Below are positions 10-16,722 of a DNA stretch of 24,000 nt, piece after piece; position 1 is the first letter of the stretch; every line of letters starts with the position of its first letter. The stretch lies in NCBI GenBank assembly GCA_008923285.1, contig WBSG01000009.1, positions 44,114 to 68,113 on the forward strand, written 5' to 3'. The stretch is from Betaproteobacteria bacterium SCN2. Lineage in GTDB: Bacteria; Pseudomonadota; Gammaproteobacteria; Burkholderiales; Thiobacillaceae. The notes beneath the pieces are model-generated. The model was not told the origin of the DNA. It ran no database searches and saw only the letters and a list, made by a program, of their open reading frames with translations. The position numbers were made by a program, and so were the translations under genes.

Positions 10-396
10 TCATGTCCAGTATTTGGCCTTGTCTGGCAAAACCCAGCGCACCCCTCCCCGCGGGTCTTCCTTATCGCCCCTGTAGCGCGGGATTAGATGA
101 ATGTGCAGATGCGGCACTGTTTGACCGCCAGCGGGTCCATGGTTGATGCCGATGTTGTAGCCATCTGGCTGATGCTGTTTGTCCAGAATAGTCTTTGCTT
201 TTGTCAGCGCCTTGAGTAATGCCGCCTGCTCATCCTCGGTTGCCTCGAACAAAGTTGCAACGTGACGGCGCGGGAGGATTACGGTATGCCCCATTGATAC
301 CGGGAAGCCATCTCGATATACCACCGTGAGCTCATCCTCAGCGAGAATGCGATTGGGCTCAAGATGGCAAAAAGGGCAAGGTTTAGCCGGGGTCAT
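10..396 (-). CDS. HIT-family nucleotide hydrolase/transferase
   Basis: 128-aa ORF with an N-terminal CPFC and the histidine-triad signature HLHIHLIP (HxHxHxx) near the C-terminus. It is the last gene of a same-strand string, 19 nt after the upstream stop. Confidence 0.85.
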   Translation of the reverse strand: MTPAKPCPFCHLEPNRILAEDELTVVYRDGFPVSMGHTVILPRRHVATLFEATEDEQAALLKALTKAKTILDKQHQPDGYNIGINHGPAGGQTVPHLHIHLIPRYRGDKEDPRGGVRWVLPDKAKYWT

Positions 397-415: not shown

Positions 416-808
416 TTAATTACCTGCGTACCACGCCAACAAGCGATCTAGACTTGCCTCGTCCCTTACTTCAATCCGCAAGACGTCATTGCTTGCCGGG
501 TCCAGAGACGGATTCTTGCGCGCCACCGATCCCGCAATGCCGGGGTTGCCATTTACTCCCTGATGCCCGTGCACATACTTTTCGAGAACCTGGATTCCGT
601 CCAAGCCTTCAGAAGGGCAAGGCAAGCCAGCAGAGGAACAATGGTTTACGTAAGCTGTTACCCCATTCTTGCGCGCAAGCGAAATGGCCACTTCTCGAGG
701 TTGCGGGCCCTTAACAGTAAAACAGGCTGACTTGGTTGCCTGGTGATGGCATTGATAACCTCGATTCGCAAGTCTATCTGCGGCAAAATCGGCATTCCAA
801 GCGGTCAT
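416..808 (-). CDS. hypothetical protein, 130 aa, no domain recognised
   Basis: The ATG at 806-808 is preceded on the minus strand by GAGGGG about 6 nt upstream. The ORF fills the gap between the ASCH and HIT genes. The competing + strand ORF 364..714 is an Arg/Pro-rich shadow. Confidence 0.5.
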   Translation of the reverse strand: MTAWNADFAADRLANRGYQCHHQATKSACFTVKGPQPREVAISLARKNGVTAYVNHCSSAGLPCPSEGLDGIQVLEKYVHGHQGVNGNPGIAGSVARKNPSLDPASNDVLRIEVRDEASLDRLLAWYAGN

Positions 809-890: not shown

Positions 891-1319
891 CTATGCTGAC
901 GTGGCGAGTTGCCGGTTTAACTCCTTGATTGCATCTGCGTCCAAGTTGACATAGGTCACAGCCCCGGGATTGTGAGTGTAATTGACTGGTGAGCTGAGCC
1001 GAATGACATTCTTGAGCCGCCATCCATGAGTCCATCCCTTTTCAAAGAAAACATCTCTTTGCCTTTCTGGCTCAACTGCATGCTCGTGAGCGCGGGCTTG
1101 AAATTCTTCATATGTCATAGGCCCGACCGATTCAACAATCTCTGCCACTGCAAATATTTTTCCAGAACCATTTTTGATCAAGGCAACAGGTCCAAGCTGA
1201 CGGTTGTGTTTAGACCGAAGCTCCATGGTTTTGCGGCCTTGAAGAATTTTGTTAAGCGGCTCTTCCATTATTACCAAACCGCGAGTCGGAACAATAAATG
1301 GGATATTTTCAGAATTCAT
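891..1319 (-). CDS. ASCH-domain (PUA-like fold) protein
   Basis: The N-terminal core LNKILQGRKTMELR followed by IKNGSGKIFAVAEI fits the ASCH pattern. I trimmed the 208-aa ORF to Met67 (ATG ending at 1319) because the longer form overlaps gene 1378..2967 by about 140 nt. There is no clear SD, and an alternative ATG ends at 1268. Confidence 0.65.
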   Translation of the reverse strand: MNSENIPFIVPTRGLVIMEEPLNKILQGRKTMELRSKHNRQLGPVALIKNGSGKIFAVAEIVESVGPMTYEEFQARAHEHAVEPERQRDVFFEKGWTHGWRLKNVIRLSSPVNYTHNPGAVTYVNLDADAIKELNRQLATSA

Positions 1320-1377: not shown

Positions 1378-2967
1378 TCAACTTGCGGATTTGAGTTGCT
1401 CGACCTGCTGACCAAGATTGTCCAGTTCTGCATCCAACGCCTTCTGCATCCGCTCCACCCGGTCAATGACCTTCTCGGCATTATTCTTGATTGTTCCGCT
1501 CCAAGTCCGGATTTCATCCAGATATTTCGCCTGCCTCTGGATCTCAGTCAGGGATTTGTCTATGGCCTGAAAATCCGCCACACGCTCGGCATTTTCCACA
1601 CGGGCACGCACCGCCATGGCCTTGGCGGCCATGAAGGCGGCCTTGAGGTAGGCATCACTGGATTCGTCTTCGGCATCCCATACCACGATGATGTCGTTGC
1701 CATAGCGGGCAAGGGTTTCCAGCACGGCTGGGGCGGTGCGGCGTGAATGGACGAAAAGCCCCACCCCGGCATCGCGGTTCTTGCGGGCAGTGTCGATTTC
1801 TTCCAGGGTGGACTTCAAGGTATAGGAAGCGTCTTCCTTGAACTCGACGGCAATGCGCGCGCCGGCCGCGGCATTGTCGGCGCCCAGGGTAATGACGGCA
1901 TCGCCCACCTTGCTACGCGGGATCAGGCCGGTCGTGCTGCCGGTATCCTCGGCGATGTCGCCAGCACGGGTGGCGAGATCCTGCAGGATTTCGAACCCCG
2001 CCTGCTGGAAGTCTTGGCCGTGGGTAGTTGAAGCCGCTTCGGCCGTTTTCTTGGCGCGCATGGCATCCAAAGCACCCACTACCTGGATCTGGAACTCTTG
2101 GGCGGCCTTGTTCTGGGCTTCGATCATCTGGGTCAGTTCACGCTTGAGGCGGGCCAAGGCGGAGTTTTCCGAATCGAGGGTGAACTCGTCGCTGATCTGC
2201 TTTTGCGCTGACTCGACGCGCCTGACCAGGCGGCTCAAGGCCGACTGCTCGTTGTCCAGCGAGAACTCTTGCACGACCTCACCGATTTTCTCCTTGAGAT
2301 CATCGGCTGCCTCGCCATGCTTGTCCTTGAGTTCCCGCACCAGGCGAGCCAACGCACCTTCGGCATTATCCAGCGAGAACTCGCGCAGGATGGCGTCGGC
2401 CTGGGTGGAAAGCGTGGTCTCGACATGACCGCGCAGCGCAGCCAGGAAACGGTTGGACTCGTCCGGCGACAGGTTCTGCATCAGCACGCTGTCTTCGCCC
2501 ACGTGCCGGGTCAGGGTATCGGCCAGGGCGCGTTCGTTCTGCTCGATCTGGGTGCGCATGAGCTTTTCCAGTTCGCCGTCCTGGCGTACCAGACGCTCGA
2601 CACGCTCGTTGAAGCGGCCGTTCTGCGGGTCGAAGTATTCCTTGAGGGTGCCGGTAAGCAGGGTCTCGGTCTGGCGGCGGTAATCGGCCAGGCGGGCTTC
2701 CATTTCCCGCACCAGACGGTCGCCCTCATTGCGCACAGACTCGGCATCGATGCGGCCCTGGGCCTGGTTGAGCGCCAGGATGCCGATGCGAAGCGCAGTG
2801 CGCACGAATCGGTTGCGCTCGCGACCCTCGGGGTAAGCGACCAGCGCGGCGATGGCTTCGGGGTCGTCGATGACCAGGTCCAGGCGCAGGCCGGGCTCCT
2901 GCTCTGCGGCATCGGGCTTGATTTGCCTGGCTGCCGATGTCTGATTGTCCTCTAGCTCTATGGCCAT
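1378..2967 (-). CDS. coiled-coil protein with a C-terminal PD-(D/E)XK-like domain (RmuC/DUF2130-like architecture)
   Basis: 529 aa with a strong SD (GGAGG 8 nt before the ATG at 2967). About 330 aa are Glu/Arg/Leu/Ala-rich heptad-like sequence with three SLD(N/S)ExSAL(A/S)RL motifs. The C-terminus has GDAVITLG...ARIAVEFKED (D...ExK) followed by DAGVGLFVHS. The nuclease-fold call is inferred from the motif only. Confidence 0.55.
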   Translation of the reverse strand: MAIELEDNQTSAARQIKPDAAEQEPGLRLDLVIDDPEAIAALVAYPEGRERNRFVRTALRIGILALNQAQGRIDAESVRNEGDRLVREMEARLADYRRQTETLLTGTLKEYFDPQNGRFNERVERLVRQDGELEKLMRTQIEQNERALADTLTRHVGEDSVLMQNLSPDESNRFLAALRGHVETTLSTQADAILREFSLDNAEGALARLVRELKDKHGEAADDLKEKIGEVVQEFSLDNEQSALSRLVRRVESAQKQISDEFTLDSENSALARLKRELTQMIEAQNKAAQEFQIQVVGALDAMRAKKTAEAASTTHGQDFQQAGFEILQDLATRAGDIAEDTGSTTGLIPRSKVGDAVITLGADNAAAGARIAVEFKEDASYTLKSTLEEIDTARKNRDAGVGLFVHSRRTAPAVLETLARYGNDIIVVWDAEDESSDAYLKAAFMAAKAMAVRARVENAERVADFQAIDKSLTEIQRQAKYLDEIRTWSGTIKNNAEKVIDRVERMQKALDAELDNLGQQVEQLKSAS

Positions 2968-3008: not shown

Positions 3009-3029
3009 ATGCCCCTTCGACCGGGGCAT
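3009..3029 (-). other. GC-rich hairpin in the leader of the 529-aa gene
   Basis: ATGCCCC-ttcgacc-GGGGCAT (7-bp stem) lies between palindrome A copy 1 and the SD of gene 1378..2967. No U-tract follows on the minus strand, so it is not a canonical terminator. Confidence 0.3.
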
Positions 3030-3069
3030 TGCATGACACCGATGCAGTCAGCAAGGCTAACAGCCAGAT

Positions 3070-3086
3070 GGCTCACCGAATGAGCC
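3070..3086. promoter_or_regulatory. operator-like palindrome A, copy 1: GGCTCA-ccgaa-TGAGCC
   Basis: Perfect 6+6 inverted repeat with a 5-bp spacer. It lies in the 142-nt gap between the WYL-1 stop (3110) and the 529-aa gene start (2967). Confidence 0.6.
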
Positions 3087-3109
3087 ACATCTGGGATTCC
3101 TTGCAGTCT

Positions 3110-4087
3110 TCAGCCGTAGTGACGGGCTGCCTGGGCGATCTGATCCTTGACCCGTCTGCGCAGGCTGGCCGGCCCAAGAACCTCCACATCCGGCCCGTAC
3201 TTGAGGATATCCATCAGCAGCTCGCGGTCGTCGGCATAGGGGATTTCCAGCGAGTAACTGCCATCCGTGCCCATGGTGCCCTTCTGCCTGGGATGCCACT
3301 GCTCGTGGGCAACCCAACGGGCCCGCTCGGGCGTGAACTTGAGCTTGGCCCATTGCACCTTGCTGCCGGAGAAGATGCCATACCCCGCCCCCAGTACTTC
3401 ATCCGTGGTCTTTTCGGACACATCCTTGGCCGGCTTTTCCAGAACCTCGGCCTTCTGGATAGCATCGACCGAGAAGTTGCGCAGCCCCTTGCGCAGGTGG
3501 CACCAGGCATCCAGGTACCAGTTTTCCCGGTAATAGACGAGGCGCTGCGGCGAGACTTCGCGCTCGGTCACTTCGTTGGTGCCGCGGGCATGGTAGGTGA
3601 TCATCAGGCGCTTGCGCCTCAGGAGAACGGAGCCGACGGTCTCGAAATGGGACAGATGCATGCGGCGCGCGGCCACGCCGATGATGCGCACCCGCTTCCT
3701 TACCTCTTCGGCCGTGTTGTCGGCCGTGCCCAGGAGGCCGTTCAGCCGGGCCATGAGCGGCTGGATGTGGGGCGAAAGCAGCCCGCCCTTGTCCAGATTC
3801 GCCATCAGGTGCTGCATGGTCAGCAGCGCATGGATTTCCGAGGCGTTGAACCAGAGGCCGGGCAGTTCGAACTGGCTGCCGGCCGGGGCGTCGCCCTTTT
3901 CGTAGCGGTAGCCCCCTAAATCGCGGTCCCAGATGATGGGGGCGTTGAGCCGGTCACGCAGGTACTGGAAGTCCCGCTTGAGCGTGGCCCGCGAGACCTC
4001 CAGCTCATCAAGGAAGTCGTCGAACGGCACGACCTTGCGGTCGCTGATCATCTGGTCGATCTTGTAGAAACGCTCGGTGCGGTCCAT
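3110..4087 (-). CDS. HTH-WYL-WCX transcriptional regulator (BrxR/CapW/PafC-like), regulator 1
   Basis: N-terminal wHTH (RFYKIDQMISDRKVVPFDDFLDELEVSRATLKRDFQYLRD), a literal WYL motif (YYRENWYLDAWC) and a C-terminal WCX-like tail (LLMDILKYGPDVEVLGPASLRRRV). The start is set at MDRTERF (ATG ending at 4087) with GGAG 6 nt upstream. The 110-aa upstream extension of the ORF overlaps the neighbouring gene. Confidence 0.85.
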   Translation of the reverse strand: MDRTERFYKIDQMISDRKVVPFDDFLDELEVSRATLKRDFQYLRDRLNAPIIWDRDLGGYRYEKGDAPAGSQFELPGLWFNASEIHALLTMQHLMANLDKGGLLSPHIQPLMARLNGLLGTADNTAEEVRKRVRIIGVAARRMHLSHFETVGSVLLRRKRLMITYHARGTNEVTEREVSPQRLVYYRENWYLDAWCHLRKGLRNFSVDAIQKAEVLEKPAKDVSEKTTDEVLGAGYGIFSGSKVQWAKLKFTPERARWVAHEQWHPRQKGTMGTDGSYSLEIPYADDRELLMDILKYGPDVEVLGPASLRRRVKDQIAQAARHYG

Positions 4088-4137
4088 GGTGCACTCCATC
4101 AGGGGATGGCGTGATTCTAGGACACTTTTCCCTATCT

Positions 4138-4154
4138 GGCTCAAGGCATGAGCC
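4138..4154. promoter_or_regulatory. operator-like palindrome A, copy 2: GGCTCA-aggca-TGAGCC
   Basis: Perfect 6+6 inverted repeat, 51 nt upstream of the WYL-1 start codon (4087). Position suggests an autoregulatory site. Confidence 0.65.
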
Positions 4155-4266
4155 ATAAGTGGCGCACGGATCATTCGAACGTGCATCGCGCGATCAGGAT
4201 CAGCATGGCAAAGACCACCAGGGCCAATGCCATTCCCCTGAAGAAATACCTGAACGGGCCCATGAC

Positions 4267-4833
4267 TCAGCACCACTCCCGCACCGTCAGGAAGTGAGCT
4301 CCAGGACAACCGTTCCGAACCAGCACGTACCCCGCTAGAAGTTCCTTCTGCCCCCATGTCGTCTCCCATCGCGCAGTAAAGGACCAAAGCTCGTCTCCAT
4401 CCGAACAGCCGTCCAGGAAATCGCGCCAAGCCGCATTCAGGTGGCCGAACGGCAAGTTCGGTACGGCACCCAGGGGGTCTTCCACCGTTTCGCGAGCCTC
4501 GGTCTCCTGCACGGTCAGTCGTTCCTGTAGATGGCCACGCTCCACGGCAAATTCCCGCTCTTCCTCCAGCGCAGGCTCATTCTTCTTCGTAAAGTGCTCT
4601 GTAATCTTCATGTAGGCGGCAACTGGCCAGAATATTACGACAGCGACAGCAGCAAGCGCCGGGGCAACAATGTTGTTCAGTATTCGAAATGAAAGCTTCT
4701 CGCGGTCTGGATTCACCGCATCGAGCAGGTCATGAAGCGATTCCGACTCGCTCTTTTTCGTCAGCCGTTGCGCACCATAAATGAGGACAAGCACCGAAAC
4801 CCCTATCCCGAGGTACCAATACAGGTAGATCAC
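4267..4833 (-). CDS. membrane protein, 188 aa (two predicted TM helices plus a C-terminal soluble domain)
   Basis: Hydrophobic stretches YLYWYLGIGVSVLVLIYG and IVAPALAAVAVVIFWPVAAY. GTG start with AGGAG 6 nt upstream. The GTGA start/stop overlap with the upstream gene suggests translational coupling. Confidence 0.65.
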   Translation of the reverse strand: MIYLYWYLGIGVSVLVLIYGAQRLTKKSESESLHDLLDAVNPDREKLSFRILNNIVAPALAAVAVVIFWPVAAYMKITEHFTKKNEPALEEEREFAVERGHLQERLTVQETEARETVEDPLGAVPNLPFGHLNAAWRDFLDGCSDGDELWSFTARWETTWGQKELLAGYVLVRNGCPGAHFLTVREWC

Positions 4834-5330
4834 GACTCACTCCTGTCGTCCATGTTAACGCGAGGGAACACTGTCATGGCGCCGACTTCGTAGCCTTCGG
4901 GGGCGTCATCGGAGTCGGCTGTCCCGTTGTGTCGCACTCGCGTCGCCACCACGACACCGCGCTCGATGTCCAAGAACAAGTCCCGCTCGTAGGTGCTTCC
5001 ATAGCCCATGTGGACGTACTCGAGCTGCTTACCCTGCGGAATGCGGATGGTGCCGGTGTACCAGTGCGCGAAAACCCTGTCTGGAAAGTCCGGAAAGATG
5101 GTAGCAACCGAGGCCTCGGATCCATCCTCCAAGGTGCCGTGCAGCCCGACCAGGTACAGTCGTTCGTTGACGATTTCCCATCTACCAACGTAGCCGCGCC
5201 ACAGAGCCGTGCAGTTTGACTCGAACCGTGGGGTATACCCACCCATGGCAAAGTAGTCGCTGAGGGGGTTTGTGCACATGGCCACTTCCTTCCCTTGGTA
5301 GAGCAGCCTTTCAGCAATCTGCGCTGTCAT
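4830..5330 (-). CDS. hypothetical protein, 166 aa
   Basis: Start set at MTAQIAERL (ATG ending at 5330) with GGGAGAG about 5 nt upstream. The longer 221-aa form would overlap the 5'-nucleotidase gene. No domain recognised. Confidence 0.6.
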   Translation of the reverse strand: MTAQIAERLLYQGKEVAMCTNPLSDYFAMGGYTPRFESNCTALWRGYVGRWEIVNERLYLVGLHGTLEDGSEASVATIFPDFPDRVFAHWYTGTIRIPQGKQLEYVHMGYGSTYERDLFLDIERGVVVATRVRHNGTADSDDAPEGYEVGAMTVFPRVNMDDRSES

Positions 5331-5382
5331 GATATCTCTCCCTGTTGGCTCCCTGTTCCACCCGCAGCTACCAGCGCTCCCA

Positions 5383-6315
5383 TTAAGCTGCCTTGGCGGT
5401 AAGCTGGACAACCTGGCCATTGGCCACGCCATAGGGCACATGGCCGGTGGCCACATGCTGGCGCGCCGATTCGCAGTGGCCCTGCTGGTCGTCAAAGAAG
5501 ATGTCCGCGCCGAAGGCCTTGAGGAACTCGCCCTTGTTCATGCCGCCCAGAAACAGCGCCTCGTCGATGCGGATGTTCCATCCCCGGAGCGTGCGAATCA
5601 CACGCTCGTGCGCCGGGGCGCTCCTCGCTGTGATGAGTGCGGTGCGGATGGGCGAAGCCTCGCTCGGATACTCGGACTGTATCTGGTGCAGGATGGAGAG
5701 GAAGCTTTTGAACGGCCCTCCGGAGAGCGGTAAGCGAGCGGCATCCCGTTCGTTTTGCTCGAAAGCCCCCAGCCCTTCGCGCTTGTAGATCTGCTCGGAC
5801 TCGTCGGAGAACACCACGGCATCGCCGTCGAAGGCGATGCGCAGTTGCCCGGAGGCGGTGTTCTGGTTCACATGGGACGGCAGGATGGTCGCCGCAGCAC
5901 AACCGGCTTCCAGCGCCTTGCGCACGTCGTCCTGGCTGGCGGATAGGAAAAGGTGCGCGCCAAAAGGCGCGATATAACGCCAGGTGCTCTCCCCGCGGGT
6001 GAAGGCCGCCCGGGTGATGTCCAGCCCGTGGTGACGAATGGAGTTGAACACCCGAAGGCCCGTGTCCGCGCTGTTGCGCGAGAGCAGGATCACCTCGACC
6101 CGCGCCTTGCCGGTCTCGGCATCGTTCAGGGCCAGAAGCTTCTTGACCAGGGGGAAGGCGATGCCGGGTTCCAGCACGTCCTCCTCGTGCTCGATCTGGT
6201 AGCGGCAATAGGCATCCACACCATCCTCCTCGAATACCCGGTGGCTTTCGTCCAGATCGAACAGGGCGCGGGAAGAAATGGCGACGACCAGCTTGTTGTT
6301 GGTGTTATCGGGCAT
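5383..6315 (-). CDS. HAD-superfamily 5'-nucleotidase (cytosolic cN-I-like family)
   Basis: HAD motif I FDGDAVVF (DxDxV), motif II ITARS and motif III/IV K...FGADIFFDDQ. The overall layout, starting KLVVAISSRALFDL, recalls the cN-IA-type 5'-nucleotidase family. Start at MPDNTNNK with AAGGAG 6 nt upstream. Confidence 0.7.
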   Translation of the reverse strand: MPDNTNNKLVVAISSRALFDLDESHRVFEEDGVDAYCRYQIEHEEDVLEPGIAFPLVKKLLALNDAETGKARVEVILLSRNSADTGLRVFNSIRHHGLDITRAAFTRGESTWRYIAPFGAHLFLSASQDDVRKALEAGCAAATILPSHVNQNTASGQLRIAFDGDAVVFSDESEQIYKREGLGAFEQNERDAARLPLSGGPFKSFLSILHQIQSEYPSEASPIRTALITARSAPAHERVIRTLRGWNIRIDEALFLGGMNKGEFLKAFGADIFFDDQQGHCESARQHVATGHVPYGVANGQVVQLTAKAA

Positions 6316-6363
6316 GGCGGGCTCCTTTGGCTTTGTCATACCTGCCATGCTACGGGGAATGGT

Positions 6364-6380
6364 GGCTCATAGAATGAGCC
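6364..6380. promoter_or_regulatory. operator-like palindrome A, copy 3: GGCTCA-tagaa-TGAGCC
   Basis: Perfect 6+6 inverted repeat, 49 nt upstream of the 5'-nucleotidase start codon (6315). Confidence 0.6.
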
Positions 6381-6483
6381 TGTTCATCAAATACTTCAAA
6401 AATGCTTGGGGGCACTTCCGTTTTTGGTGATCACATGGAGAATAACCATGCAAACTTGGACATTTATTCAGCTGTCTAGATTT

Positions 6484-6930
6484 CTAGATTCGTATTCTGG
6501 TTGCATTGATCGGAATGCTTAAATACGTAGTAGATTTTTGACTGTGAGAATAGCCATTTCTCTTATCCGCCCATCTTTTTCCACATCGTACTTCGTTCTT
6601 CTCTGGGTCCAGTATCAAAAACCTGTGGTTGTCTTTCACCACCACTACCCAATGAAAATGCTTTTTTCTACGATTCACGCCAACAATCGCAGTGCCCTGT
6701 ATGTCGTCCCAGCATCCGGATTTTTTCTCTTTTGCACGAATTCCGTATTTTTTAAGAGCCTTACCCAAATCCTTAGCTAGTGTGTAGTACTCCTCCCTTC
6801 GAGTGCTCCAATTAAGAATTTCGGCAAAGGCATCTTTCATTTCTTCGTAAGAGCGATTTGCAATCATGGCCACACAGGCAATTCCACATCCAGTTTTGTC
6901 CTTCTGTTTTATCAAGGATATCGTCGCCAT
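6484..6930 (-). CDS. papain-like cysteine peptidase, C39-like
   Basis: Ordered Q-C-H-D pattern: LIKQKDKTGCGIACVAMI (Gln, then the catalytic Cys in a GCG context) and HFHWVVVVKDNHRFLILDP (His and Asp). GGGAGG lies 6 nt before the ATG. The DNA is markedly AT-rich compared with its neighbours. Confidence 0.6.
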   Translation of the reverse strand: MATISLIKQKDKTGCGIACVAMIANRSYEEMKDAFAEILNWSTRREEYYTLAKDLGKALKKYGIRAKEKKSGCWDDIQGTAIVGVNRRKKHFHWVVVVKDNHRFLILDPEKNEVRCGKRWADKRNGYSHSQKSTTYLSIPINATRIRI

Positions 6931-7011
6931 CAGTTGCCTCCCACCTCGCAGTAATTCTCTGATTCCAACTTAATTAACACAGCCAAATTTCATCATTTAG
7001 CCACAGAAGGA

Positions 7012-8871
7012 TTAGTCAATCCTGTTTGGTAACCTGAAGGCATTTCCCACAAAGCGTTCCAGCGAACCCAATGCAAGTGTACCCGCCGTCATGTCTGATT
7101 CTCCGCCCAGCGGCGTGGCATTTGTCTTGAGACATTCCTCATAGATTGCCTGCCGTCGAGGTTCGCAATTATCGCTGTTGATCAAATCACGCAGTAAATT
7201 GGTCGCCTCGATGCAGTCCATTGAAGGATCTTCATTTCGGGGGCCACTATGCTCCATGAATATATAGGAGAAGGTCTTGTTCATGACCAAGGACGGCATT
7301 TCGTAATAGTAGCGGTCGATCATGACCTGGCGTCTGCTCCCGTCTTGGGCATCGGCCTCGGCGTCTGGGTCCAGTGGAAGAATGAGCAGATCGAAGATGG
7401 CATCATCATCGGTATCCGGTTTCATGGCCAATGTGGAAACATGATTCCCATCCAGGTCGCGGATGGAAAAAATGCGCAGGCCGTACAACAGGCATTTTTG
7501 CGCATAGCTCCCCACACAATGCCCCATGGCATTCCCCTCTTGCCATAAAGAAACTTCATCATTCAGTTCGACGATCATCCGCTTTCCCAACCGGATTGAC
7601 GAATCCAGCAATGGCGTCCAGGAGATTCCCTTTCCTGAAGGGTCGCCAGCAATCCCTTTTGTATTACGCATCTTTTCATGCCAATGATCGCTGATTTTGG
7701 TGAGCGTTTTGGGGCCAGTCTTGAACGCCCATCGCCTGACAGTGCGACGCGCCTTGATCGAACTGATACGGCGGTGATGAGCCACGCCATCGGCAAGCGC
7801 ATCCAGAAAGTCGCTGACGCCTGATACGGCAGGAAACCGCAAATCCTCTTGTTCCTTCTCAAGCACGCTCATGGGAAGCTTTTGATATCCGGTGAGCCTT
7901 TTTAGCGCTGTAGCAGGCATTTCCCACAATCCGCCAATGACGCGCTCATTGATTCTTCCCAGTCCAAGACTGATGCGCCAATAGTGAGCAGCCAGCAAGG
8001 CAACATCACCTTCTTGGGCCAGATATTTCCACCCCGGCTGCATCGACAGCGCCTTGAGCATCGGCTGAAACTCGTCCCGAACTGCCTTGAATAGCGCAGT
8101 CAGATGGAGTCCCTTGGTTCGCCTCAAGGCAGCGGCCGGCACATCGAAATGCCCCGACAGGAAATGAATCAGTTTCAGACCCTGGTCGATGCAGGCGAGC
8201 ACCTTCGACCGCTCTCCGCAGAAGGACATCTTGTCGTCATCTCGACGGCAGTTGGCCCATTCCTCAGGCAGTTCGTGGCAAAGGTATCTTGCCAGCCAGG
8301 GAAAAATGGCAAATGCCTGCCGCCTGTAATGCGAACATCTGGAGTCATCGCAATCAATCAGGTTGTAGGCGGCCACATTCGGGAACATTCCCCTGTCGTG
8401 AGTACGGAGTTTTTTCAGGATGCCGAAAGCCTCTGCATCAAGCAGGCCGATAAACCTCGTGAGGTCTTGTTTGGCCTGCGTAATTTCTGCGGAAGACCTA
8501 CCAAGCCACCCGTCATTGCTCTCGTCGTAATTTCCATCCCAGTATCGCCTGATGATTTCCCCTTCAAGCGCACTCGGGTCAAGCGCCGCACAGACCATTG
8601 GCTCCCAAGCCACGGCATCGTGCGCCTCGTTCAAGATCGAATCCACACCCTTGCCCAGGTGATCAAGCATGGACTGGCATGCTTCTTCGGGCGTACCAGC
8701 CCAATCCTTGCGAACATAGGCGACTGCGCCGCTGGGCATCGCCACCCACATCAAGCAGTCGTGCTGCCCATGATTCTCTGATGAGGGAGCGATCAACTGG
8801 TATAGCCCCGCCACTCCGGGCAATGGGTTAAGGACTGTTTTCGACTCCAAGCGGTGCTTGACGGTATTCAT
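7012..8871 (-). CDS. PcfJ-like domain protein
   Basis: The C-terminal segment LWQEGNAMGHCVGSYAQKCLLYGLRIFSIRDLDGNHVSTL matches my memory of the PcfJ-like signature (EG..M.HCV.sY...ifs.r). Start set at MNTVKH with GGAGG 5 nt upstream, 17 nt after the AAA+ gene stop. The N-terminal roughly 450 aa are unassigned. Confidence 0.65.
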   Translation of the reverse strand: MNTVKHRLESKTVLNPLPGVAGLYQLIAPSSENHGQHDCLMWVAMPSGAVAYVRKDWAGTPEEACQSMLDHLGKGVDSILNEAHDAVAWEPMVCAALDPSALEGEIIRRYWDGNYDESNDGWLGRSSAEITQAKQDLTRFIGLLDAEAFGILKKLRTHDRGMFPNVAAYNLIDCDDSRCSHYRRQAFAIFPWLARYLCHELPEEWANCRRDDDKMSFCGERSKVLACIDQGLKLIHFLSGHFDVPAAALRRTKGLHLTALFKAVRDEFQPMLKALSMQPGWKYLAQEGDVALLAAHYWRISLGLGRINERVIGGLWEMPATALKRLTGYQKLPMSVLEKEQEDLRFPAVSGVSDFLDALADGVAHHRRISSIKARRTVRRWAFKTGPKTLTKISDHWHEKMRNTKGIAGDPSGKGISWTPLLDSSIRLGKRMIVELNDEVSLWQEGNAMGHCVGSYAQKCLLYGLRIFSIRDLDGNHVSTLAMKPDTDDDAIFDLLILPLDPDAEADAQDGSRRQVMIDRYYYEMPSLVMNKTFSYIFMEHSGPRNEDPSMDCIEATNLLRDLINSDNCEPRRQAIYEECLKTNATPLGGESDMTAGTLALGSLERFVGNAFRLPNRID

Positions 8872-8888
8872 GCCTGCCTCCATCCCGA

Positions 8889-10991
8889 TCAGGCCGCAAA
8901 GCCGATCTTGCGGCCATGGCCTTCCTGATTGAGTTCGCTTTCCTGGCGCAGCGCCTCGAGCGCGTCCTCACAGTTCCTGATCCTTCTGAGGCGGGACTGT
9001 CTCGCGACGGTCGCGTAGTTGCCGGGGGTGATCCCGCTTACTCTGGCAAGCCTGGCTTTCAGTTCGGTCGCTGGCGCAGGAAGGGACAGGATGTTGCACA
9101 GGTTCTCAAACAGGCGCCATGCCTGCTCTGGCAGCAGGAATCCAAAGCAGACCTTGAGGTCAAAGCGACGCACCGAGGCCTTGTCCAGGTTGTCCATCAG
9201 GTTGGTCGAGGCAATGAAGATGCCCTTGAAGTTTTCCATGCAGGTCAGCATCTCGTTTACCTGGGTGACCTCCCAGCTGTTGCGGGCCTGCTGACGGTCC
9301 ATCAGAAAGCTGTCCGCCTCGTCGATCAGTAGAACGGACTTGTCCATTTCGGCCCGATCGAAAGCATCGGCAATGTTCTTCTCGGTTTCGCCTACCCACA
9401 TCGAGATCAGGTCCGAGGCGCGCTTGACCAGCAGGGGCTGCCCCAGGAGGTGCGCGAGGTAGTGGCCATAGGCGGTCTTGCCCGTGCCGGGCGGCCCGTA
9501 CAGGCAGAGCCGCCCTTCCCGGCTTTCGAGCAGGCCCTCGCCGAGCGACGCCAGGTCGCAATCCGCGTTGAGGTAGCTCGGGTCGTAGTCGAGCCCGCCT
9601 GCGGCTTTGAGTCCTAAGCCCCTTTTCTTGCCCTGGGCCTTCAGGCTGGTCTCCATGATTCTGGTCAGTACTGCCTGGCGGTCGGAATCAGGAATCTGCT
9701 CGCGGACACTGGAATAGACGGCCGCGCTGCGCTCGATCAGGGCCGGCGTCAGGTGCTCGCAGGCGGCAGCCTGATGAGCCCAGTCTGTGCCGACTTCCGG
9801 TACATGCTGCCTGATGAGCTGTTCGCGCACCGCATAGGGTGGCGTCTTGAGTTCCAGCACATAGTCGAACCGGCGAAGGTAGGCCGGATCGAACAGGTCG
9901 ATGCTGTTGGAAAGCCAGACTGTGGGAACCGGGTTGGTTTCCAGCAGCTCGTTCATGAACGCCTTGTTCTCGGCAGGTTTGTCCTTGCGTACCAGCCATT
10001 CACTCGGCTTGGGGAACACGTCCTCAATCTCGTCGAAGACGATCAGGCATTGCCCGGCCGTGTCGAGCAGGCTCTGGCTGAACATGAAGTACCTGAAGCG
10101 ACCATGGGAGACCAGGGGGTCTCCATAGATGTCCTTGGTCGGCACTTCATAGGCCGCAGAGGAAAGCTCTCTGGACAGGGTGCGAACCAGTTCGGTCTTT
10201 CCGCAGCCTGGAGTGCCATACAGCAGGATATTCACGCCCCTGGCACGGTTGCTCAGCGCATCCTTCAGGCGTGCCAGAACGATCTGCAGGTCATCCCCCA
10301 GGTAGGAAAACGCGGATAGGTCATGTTTCCCCGACTTGCTGCCGACCAGATAGCCTTCCAGGATATCGATCGTGTCGGCATGTTCCTCCTGCATTTGCGA
10401 GGAAAGTCCGGGCAGCAGTTCGACCTTTCTGCTGAAATCCTCAATCTCGGCAGAGAGCTTCAGTATGCCGGTTTTGGCCAGCCGGCCTTCGGATGAAAAA
10501 GCCTTTTGCGCTTCTGCTTCGGGGAGTCCCAACGCTCTGGCAACGATCTGCACACACGCGAGCCGAGGCAATCTTTCAGCTGCATCGAAGATCGCGGTCA
10601 GTGCCGGCTCCTGGCGGACGAGGACTGCAAACAGCAATATATCCTGCTCGCTCTGGCTTAAATCCAAATGACTGGCCAGCCTGGCGATGTTTCTGGACAG
10701 GACAGTGCTTTCCGGCTTTTTGGGTTGTTCGGACTGCTGGGCCCTGAGCAATTCCCCGAAGCCGGCGATCTTTTCCGCTTCCTCCAGCTTCCAGAACTCC
10801 GATGGGGTAATCGCATTGCCGTCACCTCCTAGAGAGAACCTGCTTTCAGTAGCGAGACAAGGAATGTCTAGCTGCAGCGCCTCGTTTTGCCACACGAAGC
10901 CGTGTCGGACAGCCTGGGTTGCATAAGGGCTGACCAGAAAGCGCAGCGCCCACAACCGCATGAGCGGCAGGTATTCGGAGTTGATGGCCAT
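8889..10991 (-). CDS. tandem AAA+ ATPase (two classic-clade AAA domains)
   Basis: D1 has Walker A GTPGCGKT and Walker B CLIVFDEIED. D2 has Walker A GPPGTGKT, Walker B VLLIDEADS, sensor-1-like FIASTN and RRFD. The roughly 230-aa N-terminal region is unassigned. Confidence 0.9.
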   Translation of the reverse strand: MAINSEYLPLMRLWALRFLVSPYATQAVRHGFVWQNEALQLDIPCLATESRFSLGGDGNAITPSEFWKLEEAEKIAGFGELLRAQQSEQPKKPESTVLSRNIARLASHLDLSQSEQDILLFAVLVRQEPALTAIFDAAERLPRLACVQIVARALGLPEAEAQKAFSSEGRLAKTGILKLSAEIEDFSRKVELLPGLSSQMQEEHADTIDILEGYLVGSKSGKHDLSAFSYLGDDLQIVLARLKDALSNRARGVNILLYGTPGCGKTELVRTLSRELSSAAYEVPTKDIYGDPLVSHGRFRYFMFSQSLLDTAGQCLIVFDEIEDVFPKPSEWLVRKDKPAENKAFMNELLETNPVPTVWLSNSIDLFDPAYLRRFDYVLELKTPPYAVREQLIRQHVPEVGTDWAHQAAACEHLTPALIERSAAVYSSVREQIPDSDRQAVLTRIMETSLKAQGKKRGLGLKAAGGLDYDPSYLNADCDLASLGEGLLESREGRLCLYGPPGTGKTAYGHYLAHLLGQPLLVKRASDLISMWVGETEKNIADAFDRAEMDKSVLLIDEADSFLMDRQQARNSWEVTQVNEMLTCMENFKGIFIASTNLMDNLDKASVRRFDLKVCFGFLLPEQAWRLFENLCNILSLPAPATELKARLARVSGITPGNYATVARQSRLRRIRNCEDALEALRQESELNQEGHGRKIGFAA

Positions 10992-11035: not shown

Positions 11036-11054
11036 TCCGACATGTGATGTCGCA
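11036..11054. promoter_or_regulatory. operator-like palindrome B, copy 1: TCCGACA-tgtga-TGTCGCA
   Basis: 13 of 14 arm positions are palindromic. It lies 45 nt upstream of the AAA+ ATPase start codon (10991). Confidence 0.55.
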
Positions 11055-11459
11055 GTGATGATGGGGTAGGTAATTCCTGGGCGGCGACAACCTCAGGGCC
11101 AAGAATGAATTCGCAGCACGTCCAAAGCGGTTCAGGGACAAGTCCAGCAGCTGCGGATTCCGGGAGGACTGACCACCTATTTAGGTGACTACTGACCAGT
11201 CATCCGATCTATTCTGGAAATGACCGATTCTCGGCCAAAGCCGACTTCGGCCCAGCTGCGCAAGTGTGTCTGCTCACGTATCCAGAGCGGTCGTAAGCCA
11301 GTCCGTCACACCGAATGTCTGCTTCCTAGTTCGGCGAACGCGTCCTACCGACCCCAAACGAACGTAAGCAAGCTTGCCATCAACGTTTTCCTTTTAGTCC
11401 TTAGCGGACGAACCAGAGACCTGGCAAGCTGACATTAAACCCGAACATGTCTTGGGCGA

Positions 11460-12512
11460 TCAGCCCGGTTCTTTCCGAGTTGTCAGCTTCTCAGCTGCCT
11501 TCATGACCCCCTTTGTCTTGGAAGAAATGGCTCCACCAACTGCCATTGTCGTGCTCACGGTAGTGTCCACCACCTTGCCAGTGGCGTTTTTAACGCCTTG
11601 GACAGTTGAATCGACAACACCGCCAACAGCATCCCGAATGGCACCGCCAACGGTTTGCACAACTCTCGCCCCATTTTCCGTGGTGATTTCGCGCACCAGC
11701 GTCAGGGCGGATACTGTCGCTGCTTGCCTTACCGTATTTCTTTGAGGCGCAACGAGGGATTCGCAATACTGCCGTGCAACAATGCCCACGCGCAGCGTTA
11801 GAAACGCATTGGCCGAACCGCTGGCGATGCTGTTAACAAGCAGGGCGGCAATCCCCTGAAGGCCAGGTATCGCACCTTTCAAGGACGGGAATATTGATGC
11901 CACCAGAGGCGCGGCAAGCTCCGTGAATTGAACCTCATCCAGGCTATCGGCGATAAGGGCAGTCGCTCCGACATTCGAGTACAAGTAAAGCATCTGCCGT
12001 GGCGATGGGCGCTGGTAAAAAATAGAAGCGATTCGCCAAACCATTCTGAACTGCGTTGCAAGCACAACGAGCCCGTCCAGTCGCCCATTCTGCATGACTG
12101 CCGTACTGACAAATACTGTACTGGCCGTATCTTTAATGACCTTGTCTGCCTCAAGGGATAGCTTGCTCATTGCTATTGACATGTTATCCCTGATGTCCAG
12201 AGGCATGCCTCGCAGAAGAGGGTTTTTCTGCATCCTCAGAAGCAATTCAGCCAGATACTTTTCGTACTCTGGGCCAGAGTCCGTAGCAGGTTGAATCAGT
12301 GGTTTTGGAAGCCTTAAGTAAAGATAGACGGGAATAAGCAGAAGCAGCACCAAAGCAACAATCATCACCCAGAACAATGGCTGACCTGCACCCAAGTATA
12401 TTCTGTCAGCAGCATCGGCAATTTGGGTGACACTGGCGACTATGACTAAGCCAAGATACAAAAGAACCAAAATGGCCAGTAAGGTAAGGATTCGGGCAAT
12501 TGGCTTTTTCAT
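11460..12512 (-). CDS. DUF697/YcjF-like inner-membrane protein
   Basis: Two N-terminal TM helices. The core LDGLVVLATQFRMVWRIASIFYQ and the segment GSANAFLTLRVGIVARQYCESL parallel my recollection of E. coli YcjF ([44 protein letters not shown]). Start set at MKKPIARI (ATG) with GAGGG upstream; the annotated first codon is TTG. Confidence 0.55.
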   Translation of the reverse strand: MKKPIARILTLLAILVLLYLGLVIVASVTQIADAADRIYLGAGQPLFWVMIVALVLLLLIPVYLYLRLPKPLIQPATDSGPEYEKYLAELLLRMQKNPLLRGMPLDIRDNMSIAMSKLSLEADKVIKDTASTVFVSTAVMQNGRLDGLVVLATQFRMVWRIASIFYQRPSPRQMLYLYSNVGATALIADSLDEVQFTELAAPLVASIFPSLKGAIPGLQGIAALLVNSIASGSANAFLTLRVGIVARQYCESLVAPQRNTVRQAATVSALTLVREITTENGARVVQTVGGAIRDAVGGVVDSTVQGVKNATGKVVDTTVSTTMAVGGAISSKTKGVMKAAEKLTTRKEPG

Positions 12513-12538
12513 TTTCCCTCTTTGCAAGGCATTGAATG

Positions 12539-13051
12539 CTACTTCTTGCTCAAAATGGCTGGGCTAACAACAACTACTGATCTGAGCAGAATATCCTGGA
12601 CATGCCCACGAATCCTGATGCTGTCATTAGTCTTTGCTTTTCTTAGCGAATCTACGTCCACATCAGTTGCGGGATATAAAAAAATGACCACTCTCATCAC
12701 TGGCACTGCATCCTTGGATTTAACGGGCAAGGGCTGAGAGGTTATTTTGTAGACGTCATCCTCCAGTGTTATCTCGTACACCAAGATGTCCCACTCGACC
12801 GTCTTTCCAATTATTTCCTGGCGCAGCAAGTCGCGCTGTAAATCCGTGGAGTCGCTGCCGAACGCAAAGGTCTCCGACATGAGCACCTGGGACACTGGCG
12901 TAACCTCGGTACGCATGAGCTCTTCGAGTTGCTCGCCGACGGATGGCCCTGCCTGGGCTGATTGATGGCCGTTACCGCAACCTGCAAGCACCGCCATCAT
13001 GGCAATGCAGAGTAGCCAGGTTGCCAGAGTATGGTGTGTCATGTAGTTCAT
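12539..13051 (-). CDS. lipoprotein, 170 aa
   Basis: Signal peptide ending in the lipobox LAGC (WLLCIAMMAVLAGCGNG). The ATGA start/stop overlap with the upstream gene suggests translational coupling. Confidence 0.7.
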   Translation of the reverse strand: MNYMTHHTLATWLLCIAMMAVLAGCGNGHQSAQAGPSVGEQLEELMRTEVTPVSQVLMSETFAFGSDSTDLQRDLLRQEIIGKTVEWDILVYEITLEDDVYKITSQPLPVKSKDAVPVMRVVIFLYPATDVDVDSLRKAKTNDSIRIRGHVQDILLRSVVVVSPAILSKK

Positions 13052-13353
13052 TTCAACTGATAACTGGGCTTGTGATACTGCACGTTGCCGGTATTCGGGC
13101 TTACCTCGTAAACTCGGTTTCCCTCAATTTTGTACGAGAGTTTGTGATATTGGATGTTGCCTGTCTGGGGGCTTACTTCATACACCTGATCGCCAATTCG
13201 TCTATATGCAGGTTTGTGTTGCTCAAGATTGCCTGTGGCCGGCGAGACTGTATAAGAGGTTTGACCATCTTGAATAGAGGGATTAAACGGCAATTCTGCC
13301 TGCGCTGTAATTGCACAGGCGGTAATCAAGAAAGCAATAAACACTCTCAACAT
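13048..13353 (-). CDS. small secreted protein with three 24-aa tandem repeats
   Basis: Signal peptide MLRVFIAFLITACAITAQA. The repeats are YTVSPATGNLEQHKPAYRRIGDQV, YEVSPQTGNIQYHKLSYKIEGNRV and YEVSPNTGNVQYHKPSYQLK. GGAG lies 6 nt before the ATG. Confidence 0.7.
   Translation of the reverse strand: MLRVFIAFLITACAITAQAELPFNPSIQDGQTSYTVSPATGNLEQHKPAYRRIGDQVYEVSPQTGNIQYHKLSYKIEGNRVYEVSPNTGNVQYHKPSYQLK
13051..13254 (-). repeat. 3 x 72-nt in-frame tandem repeat (24-aa units; the last is truncated to 20 aa)
   Basis: Protein periodicity Y(T/E)VSPxTGN(L/I/V)(E/Q)(Q/Y)HK(P/L)(A/S)Y across residues 34-101. Confidence 0.75.
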
Positions 13354-13479
13354 CGATTACTCCAGTCTAGCCAGGCTTCGGCTTGTTTCATGTTGTCACT
13401 GAATCGCCCCCGATTTTCTAGACACTCGCAAGCCAGAGCAGTTACTACGTTGGCAAGGAATTCGGAGCGACTCAAACCG

Positions 13480-15195
13480 TCAGATTCCGAATGCATTCAA
13501 GATCGTGTCAACAACTCCCTGAATGCCTCGCCCAAATAGGCCAGAACGATCGTCTGGGCGGGGTGTTTCGGCATGGACGCAGCAACCCTTGCCCTGCCAA
13601 CTATCGTTAAACAGCTCGCGCTCTCCGAAGAAGTATGACCAGAAAGTCTCGTTACGGGCTACTGAATAGTCCAGATTGGCGCTGAAGCCGAGTGTCGCGG
13701 CCTGGTTGACAGTCCGTCCGTTAACGGCGGGCTCCACGCGCACACCTCGACAGCCTTTGACAATCAGTTTTGCTGGGCCGTGGAAAGTGATGTAGCGAAA
13801 CTGCAGGGTTAGCCAAGATCCGAGACTGCCGAATCGCCAGTGACGTGTAATCTTCAACTGTTCGCCGCGAGGCTGGATGATGCCAACCAAGCAGCTAGGC
13901 TGTAGAACCAGTGCGGAACCATCCGGGACGGTGAGCAGCGTGAATTCGGCGAGGGGATCGTTTGAGGATGATATCGTGATGCGCTCCTCGCTATTTGGGC
14001 GAATACGGGTCAGACGATACATTCCGGCAGCCAGGCTGGTTAGAGGCATCGACCAGTTGAGCAACCATTGAGTGTCGCTTTCAACGTTGAACGACATACC
14101 CTGCAGGTAATTTGGCAGAATGATCAACTCCGAACGTTCATCTAATACGAGTGAGAGCGATACCACCGATGGAGTCGTCTGACCTGATTCATTGCCCACG
14201 GAAGCGTGCGATGTGTAAATCTGTCCCGACGAATCGGGCAACAAGCGTATCGGCGGTCGGCGCACAGCAACTGGCGCAATCAAATAGTAGGCAATGGCCT
14301 TGACCAACAATGGCGATAGCAGGATAAGTACCAGACTCCAGAGCGCGGTGGGTAGCACCTCCTTGACTGGCCGCATGAACTTGTGAAGGTTTGAGCCTTC
14401 GAGTTGCTTGTTATTTTCAGAGAGGTGTTCGTTGACCGGTTGAATGATGAGATTGGCCGATCCGGGATCGAGGACGAACGGGCCTGGACGCGGGAGTTTC
14501 TGGAAGCCTTGTAGAGTCTTCTGTAGTCGCGCGATTTCAGCGTCGTGCTGCTTTTTGGAGTTTTGCAACGGGCGCTCTTGTGCTTCCAATCCCTTCATCT
14601 TGCGATAAGCACCTGAATAGGGCACTTGCCACATCAGAGGCTCCTGCTTGGACAACTCCCATTGGGCCTTCTTGTTCTGGTAAATCTGCCAAGCAAGCTT
14701 GGTGCTGGCAGTCTGGAGCCGCTTGATTTGGCCTTCGGCTTCAGCTGGCCCGGCGGTGACAGTGTGGAGGTTGCGCACATAAGCGAGTCCTTGTTGCAGG
14801 AACGCAATCTCTATATCCAGGGTGGCAATCCGTTGGAAGGTGTCACTGGTAGGTAGCTTGCGCTCGATTGGATGGTCGTCCCATAGTTTTTTGCGGGCAG
14901 CCCGCTTGTTACTGATCTCGGATTCTAGCGCCTTGATTTGCTCTGCAAGCATGGTTGCCGGTGTGCCAGGATGCGGGATTCGTGATGGCAAGCCCTTGGC
15001 CACCTTGTCGCGGATAGACTCGAGTTTGCCTTTGGCATTACGAAGTGCGGATTGCTCCCCTTCCAGCTTTTCGTACTTCTCGTACTCGGCGCTTAGGAAT
15101 TTTTTGCCCAGGAGGATAGTGATAATTACCACGAGGATCAGGACAGCGCTGGCGGCAAAACTGGCGAAACTACGAAATGGGCTGCGCATGCTCAT
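13480..15195 (-). CDS. membrane-anchored coiled-coil protein, 571 aa; C-terminal beta-rich domain possibly AIM24-like
   Basis: N-terminal TM helix (FASFAASAVLILVVIITILLG), about 230 aa of coiled-coil-like sequence, then a second hydrophobic segment (LPTALWSLVLILLSPLLVKAIAYYLIAPV). In the C-terminal roughly 250 aa, segments such as YITFHGPAKLIVKGCRGVRVEP and LFNDSWQGKGCCVHAE resemble AIM24/DUF124 strands. That domain call is weak. Confidence 0.55.
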   Translation of the reverse strand: MSMRSPFRSFASFAASAVLILVVIITILLGKKFLSAEYEKYEKLEGEQSALRNAKGKLESIRDKVAKGLPSRIPHPGTPATMLAEQIKALESEISNKRAARKKLWDDHPIERKLPTSDTFQRIATLDIEIAFLQQGLAYVRNLHTVTAGPAEAEGQIKRLQTASTKLAWQIYQNKKAQWELSKQEPLMWQVPYSGAYRKMKGLEAQERPLQNSKKQHDAEIARLQKTLQGFQKLPRPGPFVLDPGSANLIIQPVNEHLSENNKQLEGSNLHKFMRPVKEVLPTALWSLVLILLSPLLVKAIAYYLIAPVAVRRPPIRLLPDSSGQIYTSHASVGNESGQTTPSVVSLSLVLDERSELIILPNYLQGMSFNVESDTQWLLNWSMPLTSLAAGMYRLTRIRPNSEERITISSSNDPLAEFTLLTVPDGSALVLQPSCLVGIIQPRGEQLKITRHWRFGSLGSWLTLQFRYITFHGPAKLIVKGCRGVRVEPAVNGRTVNQAATLGFSANLDYSVARNETFWSYFFGERELFNDSWQGKGCCVHAETPRPDDRSGLFGRGIQGVVDTILNAFGI

Positions 15196-16666: not shown

Positions 16667-16703
16667 CAATATGAATGGAGAAGGTCATATTGAAATCGAT
16701 GTA

Positions 16704-16722
16704 TGCGACAAAAAGTGTCGCA
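16704..16722. promoter_or_regulatory. operator-like palindrome B, copy 2: TGCGACA-aaaag-TGTCGCA
   Basis: Perfect 7+7 inverted repeat, 35-47 nt upstream of the candidate HDAC-fold gene starts (38 nt from the ATG at 16666). Confidence 0.65.

Follow-up and report, generated by a model that had tools for sequence, protein, structure and literature searches.

The palindrome GGCTCA-N5-TGAGCC occurs in three exact copies around the gene of a WYL-domain regulator, WYL-1, in a 24,000-nucleotide (nt) stretch of contig WBSG01000009.1 from Betaproteobacteria bacterium SCN2, and the three copies are very probably docking sites of WYL-1, as predicted from the sequence. The whole stretch is referred to here as the window; it also encodes a second, paralogous regulator, WYL-2. 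Our overall reading, which we consider reasonably probable, is that the palindrome would be the operator of the adjacent WYL-1, bound by a homodimer and embedded in promoters of a fixed design, and that WYL-1 would act by ligand-driven activation in the manner of the WYL activators DriD, DdaA, and PafBC.

A preliminary description of this DNA had listed three perfect copies of the palindrome. A pattern scan of the window found exactly these three, at the same coordinates, and no copy appeared in 100 dinucleotide-preserving shuffles of the window. The description had also found no other full copy in the window, which holds even when two mismatches are allowed: the relaxed scan added no site. 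In 8.6 kb of the same contig past the left end of the window, there was no further copy of either this palindrome or the GCGACA palindrome associated with WYL-2. All three copies are intergenic and lie within a run of minus-strand genes. Site 1 is 23 nt past the stop codon of WYL-1 (3110) and 102 nt ahead of the ATG (2967) of a gene for a coiled-coil protein of 529 amino acids (aa), and site 2 is 50 nt ahead of the ATG of WYL-1 itself (4087). Site 3 precedes the ATG of a 5'-nucleotidase gene (6315), which has a GGAG ribosome-binding site and is also the start in the public gene call. The placements of the sites stand as first described, except that the last distance is 48 nt and not 49. The three site regions have only the palindrome and an A after TGAGCC in common. 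A duplicated promoter cassette was ruled out by the lack of likeness between the three regions past the palindrome and this adjoining base.

Each palindrome copy plausibly marks a predicted promoter, because a -10-like hexamer follows it at a fixed distance; the earlier proposal that the copies mark three transcription units is borne out to this extent. In 838 kb of DNA, comprising 80 loci with WYL-1 orthologs (designated by L numbers) and the window, 38 sites with at most one mismatch were found, versus 1–8 in shuffles. TAnnnT hexamers were listed in the 45 nt on either side of these 38 sites (76 flanks), and their occurrence was almost limited to offsets 9–11 and 18. The hexamer stands at offset 10 in 16 of the 76 flanks versus 0.2 expected (P ~5e-26, ignoring shared ancestry), and at offsets 9–11 together in 27 flanks versus 0.6 expected. 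Offset 18 was found at eight sites, all of them on the side of the regulator gene and all with TAGAAT or TACAAT; in that direction, 18 nt is the usual distance. The 10 nt between the palindrome and the -10 box are not conserved and vary by locus. Sites without TAnnnT have near-matches at 10 nt, such as GAGAAT before cas3 in L057, and CATCAT stands at 10 nt before a small divergent gene in seven loci.

At a gap of 10 nt, the palindrome extends from approximately -39 to -23 and is centered near -31. The geometry of site 2, the putative autoregulatory site, is unlike that of sites 1 and 3 (10–11 nt): its 18-nt gap puts the center of the palindrome near -39, and its -10 box is strong. No -35 box is recognizable at the target promoters, and the bases at the -35 distance are unlike TTGACA. 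The possibility that a half-site serves as the -35 box was ruled out, as the gaps to the -10 box would be 10 or 21 nt. Because the -10 boxes are weak and there is no -35 box, the target promoters should need help to fire. Wherever a -10 box is recognizable, the palindrome, with half-sites of 6–7 bp, lies upstream of it, and the predicted transcription starts give sensible leaders with ribosome-binding sites.

Among betaproteobacterial genomes, more than 588 relatives of WYL-1 were found, and the best 80 of them, which define the loci mentioned above, are 64–85% identical to it (Thiobacillus, Hydrogenophilales, Sulfuritalea, Rhodocyclus, and Aromatoleum). Conservation of the motif next to WYL-1 orthologs had been suggested as a check, and it was found: an exact or one-mismatch palindrome lies within 200 nt upstream of the ortholog in 24 of the 80 loci. 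The 5-nt spacer and the flanks are variable among these loci while the palindrome is kept, and the only gene that consistently adjoins it is the WYL-1 ortholog. In L001, whose regulator is 85% identical to WYL-1, all three site positions are kept (ahead of the nucleotidase operon, ahead of the WYL gene, and just past the WYL stop codon), and the site before the nucleotidase ortholog has TACAAT at 10 nt. The cargo of L001 differs from that of the window, consisting of ADP-ribosylglycohydrolase, DUF6884, ARPP-1, and metallophosphatase genes. Between L001 and the window, the regulatory scaffold is thus conserved while the cargo genes are exchanged. A palindrome just past the regulator stop codon is also present in L057, L078, and L039. 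We further scanned metagenomes for the palindrome together with the -10 hexamer (15 specified bases). Most of the 120 matches were chance occurrences in unrelated DNA of 24–74% G+C, and the scan is no measure of the genome-wide specificity of the palindrome; it gave 7–8 more WYL-linked sites and a recurrent pair of genes for 166- and 188-aa proteins. No relatives of WYL-1 were found in a viral contig collection, leaving a phage or satellite origin of WYL-1 unsupported.

The recognition helix of WYL-1 varies together with the half-site. The helix segment EVSRATLKRD is invariant in every ortholog with GGCTCA sites, and also in distant relatives (approximately 50–76% identical) beside GGCTCA sites in metagenomes. 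Five orthologs in which K37 is replaced by arginine, cysteine, or asparagine (L025, L039, L041, L063, and L078) are accompanied by sites of the type GTCTCA-N5-TGAGAC, perfect or with a single mismatch, and a -10-like box stands at 9–10 nt from them. Among the loci with a site, lysine pairs with GG and any other residue with GT, with no exceptions (Fisher's test, 2e-6), and the change arose independently at least twice. It is base 1 of the half-site GCTCA that covaries. In the structure of DriD bound to DNA, E40 contacts half-site base 1, R37 contacts base 2, and R41 contacts base 4 (PMC10853764). We aligned the helices on the canonical T-x-x-R-D segment, placing DriD by the residue numbers in that paper. 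At the positions of DriD R37, E40, and R41, this putative alignment gives A34, K37, and R38 in WYL-1 and arginine, glutamate, and arginine in WYL-2. These residues fit the half-sites: that of WYL-2, CGACA, is like those of DriD and DdaA, and that of WYL-1 is changed exactly at bases 1 and 2. The comparison suggests a recognition code in which residue 37 would be matched to base 1 of the half-site and residue 34 to base 2. The symmetry of the palindrome implies that WYL-1 would bind as a homodimer and not as a heterodimer of the two paralogs, WYL-1 and WYL-2, in the manner of PafB and PafC.

The domain assignment of WYL-1 rests on matches to Pfam WYL (PF13280; 75.3 bits, cut-off 21.8) followed by WCX (PF25583; 66.6 bits, cut-off 23.9). 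The N-terminal HTH_11 match is weak (20.7 bits, below the cut-off of 25), and a profile of the family aligns over residues 2–322 with the helix-turn-helix (HTH)-containing PafC half of PafBC. PADLOC assigns the protein to its Cas-associated WYL family (E 9.5e-39). The public gene call starts WYL-1 at ATG 4099 (329 aa). The orthologs all begin with MDRTERF, and this, together with the predicted transcription start and a GGAG sequence, favors ATG 4087. When the family profile, built from 23 members, was searched against the PDB, the best match was PafBC, a WYL activator of Actinobacteria, over its full length (E 3.9e-26), followed by PafC (1e-17), DriD (~2e-12), CapW (3.6e-8), and BrxR (3.1e-7). 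By this ranking of E values, which is not a phylogeny, WYL-1 resembles the activators PafBC and DriD more closely than it does the repressors CapW and BrxR. PMC10853764 lists nine contacts of DriD with single-stranded DNA (ssDNA), of which six are conserved or similar in WYL-1 (Y168, R178, R189, Y192, R204, and W206 correspond to Y165, R176, R187, Y191, R203, and F205), two are not, and Y240 is unmapped. The ligand pocket thus appears to be largely kept.

The design of the promoters resembles those of known WYL activators. The promoters activated by PafBC also lack a -35 box and carry the motif at a fixed short distance upstream of TAnnnT, as here; the PafBC motif is followed by N8-TAnnnT. PafBC is, however, a heterodimer or a fusion of two paralogs that recognizes an asymmetric element and works by sigma adaptation, whereas the palindrome described here is symmetric. 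DriD of Caulobacter crescentus is a WYL activator that binds ATACGAC-N7-GTCGTAT (PMC9186387, PMC10853764, PMC13004042). The promoters that it activates have no -35 box, and its site covers the -35 position, with unvarying spacing to the -10 box (PMC13004042). From the center of the site to the start of the -10 box there are approximately 18 nt in the DriD promoters, as estimated from the sequences printed in PMC13004042, versus 19 nt here. The predicted domain order of WYL-1 is that of DriD, the two proteins are of similar length (325 and 327 aa, respectively), DriD is autoregulated, as is predicted for WYL-1 by site 2, and at some WYL-1 ortholog loci the regulator gene is accompanied by a gene for a small membrane protein, which recalls didA. 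The two systems differ in the spacer (N7 in DriD, N5 here), in the half-site, and in their targets, which are recA and didA for DriD and, as predicted, defense genes for WYL-1; their sequence similarity is modest.

DdaA of Acinetobacter and other Moraxellaceae, which we compared by its published motif and description, is a WYL activator with the motif CGWCA-N5-TGWCG (PMC12392091, PMC13010146). It is a homodimer of the winged helix-turn-helix (wHTH)-WYL-WCX architecture, as is predicted for WYL-1, and the two palindromes agree in the 5-bp spacer and in the inner bases, WCA...TGW. CRISPR-Cas, restriction-modification, and Zorya promoters are under the control of DdaA, as is a division inhibitor. 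The half-site of WYL-1 has GC at the outer two positions where that of DdaA has CG, and the WYL-1 sites (GCTCA-N5-TGAGC) do not match the CGWCA motif. DdaA is, moreover, a single chromosomal master regulator that replaces the SOS response, whereas WYL-1 is located in a defense island beside a second WYL regulator.

The locus is a defense island, because PADLOC matches include the nucleotidase (PDC-S08), the Cas-associated WYL regulator, a ThsC-like HIT protein, and an IetA-like ATPase. The genes downstream of the three sites form three units, which are listed with the other features in Table 1. In unit 1, the nucleotidase is linked to the WYL-1 ortholog in 23 of the 80 loci. The second gene of this unit had been described as a 221-aa open reading frame (4830–5495); the gene call corrects its start, and the protein is really of 166 aa, beginning at 5330. 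In L109 and L148, whose contigs are of quite different G+C, a homolog of the 166-aa protein is encoded immediately downstream of the palindrome, and in L143 one lies approximately 200 nt from it; the 188-aa gene accompanies the 166-aa gene in L109, L148, and L193. Unit 2 consists of WYL-1 alone. In unit 3, an ortholog of the 529-aa protein is located downstream of a one-mismatch site in L003, and an ortholog of the HIT protein (80% identical) downstream of the WYL ortholog in L060, L065, L066, L069, L075, and L080. The 166-, 188-, and 130-aa proteins matched nothing in Pfam, NCBIfam, or PADLOC. Past the left end of the window, an HNH_2/ScoMcrA-SBD gene overlaps the HIT gene by 4 nt and is followed on the same strand, with gaps of 2–181 nt, by genes for a UvrD helicase, a 1084-aa protein, an MZB-domain protein, and a NERD/SLFN-like helicase (L201:12955-21590). 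Unit 3 probably continues past the window into the HNH, UvrD, and further genes. In other loci, the genes directly downstream of the palindrome include cas3 (L057, L078, and L141), cas1 (L073), a NERD-UvrD helicase with an IetA-like ATPase (L133), DUF6884 (L016 and L020), a vWA protein (L025), and ARPP-1 (L001). The WYL-1 family is therefore predicted to behave as a portable regulator of varied defense cargo.

Table 1. Coordinates of the sites, predicted -10 boxes, and genes in the window, with one gene from an orthologous locus
Feature	Coordinates	Strand	Remarks
HIT-family protein, unit 3	10-396	-	PADLOC ThsC-like
130-aa protein, no known family, unit 3	416-808	-	public gene call
ASCH-domain protein, unit 3	891-1319	-	142 aa, corrected by public gene call
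529-aa coiled-coil protein, first gene of unit 3	1378-2967	-	public gene call
Predicted -10 box TAGCCT	3054-3059	-	10 nt from operator copy 1, modal offset
Predicted operator copy 1	3070-3086	-	exact match, GGCTCACCGAATGAGCC; GGCTCA-TTCGG-TGAGCC on minus strand
WYL-1 regulator, 325 aa, predicted wHTH-WYL-WCX	3110-4087	-	Pfam, PADLOC, and PDB profile matches
Predicted -10 box TAGAAT	4114-4119	-	18 nt from operator copy 2
Predicted operator copy 2, candidate autoregulatory	4138-4154	-	exact match, GGCTCAAGGCATGAGCC; GGCTCA-TGCCT-TGAGCC on minus strand
188-aa membrane-anchored protein, no known family, last gene of unit 1	4267-4833	-	public gene call
166-aa protein, no known family, unit 1	4830-5330	-	public gene call
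5'-Nucleotidase (PF06189; PADLOC PDC-S08), first gene of unit 1	5383-6315	-	PADLOC E 1.8e-143
Predicted -10 box TAGCAT	6347-6352	-	11 nt from operator copy 3, offset class 9-11
Predicted operator copy 3	6364-6380	-	exact match, GGCTCATAGAATGAGCC; GGCTCA-TTCTA-TGAGCC on minus strand
WYL-2	18080-19093		20% identical to WYL-1
~65-aa membrane-protein gene, example	L075:5703-5897	-	motif M..L.LY..LGLALA.LR..QG.RP.DALF.GLFWP

The mechanism that we favor is that of an ssDNA-sensing activator, because the family profile is closer to PafBC and DriD and the promoters have a DriD-like fixed geometry without a -35 box. A nucleic-acid ligand, most likely ssDNA arising from phage attack or DNA damage, would occupy the WYL/WCX pocket; WYL-1, as a ligand-bound dimer, would then attach to the palindrome and bring RNA polymerase to promoters unable to fire alone. 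The operon of the nucleotidase, 166-aa, and 188-aa genes would be induced together with that of the coiled-coil, ASCH, 130-aa, and HIT genes, the latter probably extending to HNH and UvrD. We infer activation at sites 1 and 3, and the autoregulation through site 2 could be positive or negative.

The same operator might instead serve a repressor. The WYL repressors BrxR and CapW are encoded, as is WYL-1, in or next to defense loci, and their family is tied to many defense systems; their operators are inverted repeats with a 5-bp spacer (PMC9122601, PMC9122589, PMC11662680). There is more than one box per island, as with R-BOX1 and R-BOX2 in pEFER (PMC9122601). If WYL-1 worked in this way, it would occupy the promoters of the resting cell until ssDNA released it and so de-repressed the three units. 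The palindrome does overlap the place where sigma region 4 would bind, and site 2, which covers the -35 position at a promoter whose -10 box is strong, has the classical layout of autorepression. At the target promoters, however, which have no -35 box and weak -10 boxes (TAGCCT and TAGCAT), there would be little to repress, and spacing as strict as this (10 nt) is characteristic of activators. The BrxR repeats, of 10–11 bp, lie downstream of the -10 box (PMC9122601), whereas the palindrome lies upstream of it, and the promoter geometry here looks activator-like, unlike that of BrxR and CapW. These repressors are also shorter (approximately 290–300 aa versus 325 aa), and they match the family profile much less well than PafBC or DriD do (E 3e-7 to 4e-8), the profile fitting activators far better. 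We therefore consider repression unlikely.

It is quite improbable that the palindrome is bound by another regulator that co-occurs with WYL-1, or that it is a chance or mobile-element repeat. The bare pattern does occur by chance in unrelated metagenome DNA, as described above. The only consistent neighbor of the site is nevertheless the WYL-1 ortholog, whose recognition-helix residue covaries with a half-site base; in addition, the three copies show no likeness past the palindrome, and WYL-1 lacks relatives in the viral contig collection. A role as RNA hairpins (terminators, processing sites, or stabilizers between operons) and not as protein-binding DNA seems hardly credible, even though the palindrome sequences can fold (-10 to -17.7 kcal/mol) and site 1, with an extended stem, lies 23 nt past the stop codon of WYL-1. 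This reading was rejected on the grounds that there is no U tract and no Rfam match and that nine natural variants are asymmetric and not compensatory (AGCTCA...TGAGCC and GGCTCA...TGAGCT), which would break a base pair. Furthermore, a terminator was called at none of the three sites, the stem sequence and not just its pairing is conserved, and at divergent promoters both -10 boxes are downstream of the site, which would therefore be untranscribed.

Several points weigh against our reading of WYL-1 as a ligand-driven activator acting through this operator. Approximately 45 orthologs, of the Sulfuritalea type encoded directly after rsgA, have no palindrome within 6 kb; their targets may therefore lie elsewhere in their genomes, and the regulon may be broader than the sites described here. 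The binding of WYL-1 to the palindrome is itself predicted, and the alignment with the DriD recognition helix is derived from published residue numbers. Two of the DriD contacts with ssDNA, R176 and R207, are replaced by threonine and serine in WYL-1. A palindrome at -39 to -23 could just as well keep RNA polymerase out, and repression is the mode of the island-embedded WYL regulators characterized so far, BrxR and CapW. The 18-nt spacing of site 2 means that one mechanism may not fit all three sites. Finally, the P-values for the site geometry ignore shared ancestry.

The second regulator appears to follow the same plan. The WYL-2-associated palindrome, GCGACA-N5-TGTCGC, is present in exact copies at 16705–16721, 19135–19151, and 21495–21511 and with one mismatch at 11037–11053, and all four copies have a -10-like box 9–12 nt toward the gene. 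The boxes point toward the IetA-like ATPase gene (11037), a deacetylase gene, WYL-2 with its divergent neighbor, and a gene at approximately 21505. The motif fits the published DdaA motif CGWCA-N5-TGWCG exactly (PMC12392091, PMC13010146), and the best solved relatives of WYL-2 are DriD entries only. WYL-2 would thus use the same 6-N5-6 plus 10 nt design with a DdaA-type half-site, GCGACA. As the preliminary description had pointed out, the half-sites of the two motifs differ; the differences are at half-site positions 1–3, and the proteins are 20% identical, with different recognition helices. Separate WYL-1 and WYL-2 circuits are plausible, and they would be insulated by half-site bases 1–2 and two recognition-helix residues. 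The ranges of the two motifs (3070–6380 and 11037–21511) do not interleave. Upstream of site 3, an operon at 6484–10991 encodes an ATPase with two AAA domains (700 aa), which PADLOC identifies as IetA-like, a 623-aa protein with a weak PcfJ match, and a C39-peptidase-like protein. This operon appears to be under the WYL-2 motif at 11037, placing the boundary between the two regulons at approximately 6381–6483.

We regard the system as a new instance of an established route by which bacteria turn on anti-phage genes, involving no new principle. A literature search for the WYL-1 half-sites together with WYL found nothing relevant. The switching of defense islands is still poorly understood, and few WYL regulators have a known operator (BrxR, CapW, DdaA, DriD, and PafBC). 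A predicted operator sequence and a promoter rule can now be offered for a family of regulators that hundreds of betaproteobacterial genomes encode, along with a simple and testable recognition code (residues 37 and 34) and a probable natural case of one island divided between two paralogous WYL regulators with different operators. Scanning for the motif would allow regulons to be predicted, including CRISPR-Cas induction, and nominates the 166/188-aa pair, the 529-aa coiled-coil protein, and the PF06189 nucleotidase as induced defense effectors.

A broader proposal, possible but put forward only tentatively, is that the WYL-1 orthologs form an undescribed betaproteobacterial branch of ssDNA-sensing WYL activators, which would wire varied cargo through a portable cassette (GGCTCA-N5-TGAGCC, 10 nt, TAnnnT) with a recoded half-site and insulated circuits. 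If this is true, one alarm signal would be wired to type I CRISPR-Cas, the PDC-S08 nucleotidase, NERD-UvrD and Iet-like genes, and the 166/188-aa pair, and in Thiobacillaceae also to a small membrane protein, which may be a division inhibitor like DidA or AciT. The changes from arginine to alanine and from glutamate to lysine in the helix, relative to DriD, DdaA, and WYL-2, would then recode half-site bases 1–2, and two WYL activators would run insulated circuits side by side in one island.

Some further observations were made in the orthologous loci. In 11 Thiobacillaceae loci (L058, L060, L061, L062, L065, L066, L068, L069, L075, L077, and L080), a conserved gene for the membrane protein of approximately 65 aa is divergent from the WYL-1 ortholog, with the palindrome in the intervening region, at a distance of exactly 10 nt from the TAnnCT box of the small gene. 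Pfam has no match for this protein, which recalls DidA and AciT, the small division inhibitors under the control of DriD and DdaA, respectively. Among the approximately 45 rsgA-type loci (L014-L056 and similar, Sulfuritalea/Rhodocyclales), 21 have a PF06189 nucleotidase 0–4 kb downstream, and in many of them a conserved G+C-rich element, AAGTCGGCGCCGGCGACACGGCGACCGCC, stands just ahead of the nucleotidase. The PF06189 nucleotidase is directly adjacent to the WYL-1 ortholog in L035, L042, and L067.

Two further inverted repeats lie near the sites in the window. A stable hairpin, ATGCCCC-GGTCGAA-GGGGCAT, at 3010–3035 on the minus strand (approximately -20 kcal/mol with flanks, with a z-score of only -1.4) has no U tract and sits between the ribosome-binding site and the predicted transcription start of the 529-aa gene, within a predicted leader of 80 nt. 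A tandem palindrome, TCTAGA-AA-TCTAGA, at 6475–6488 is located over the stop codon of the C39-like gene, in the A+T-rich spacer before site 3.

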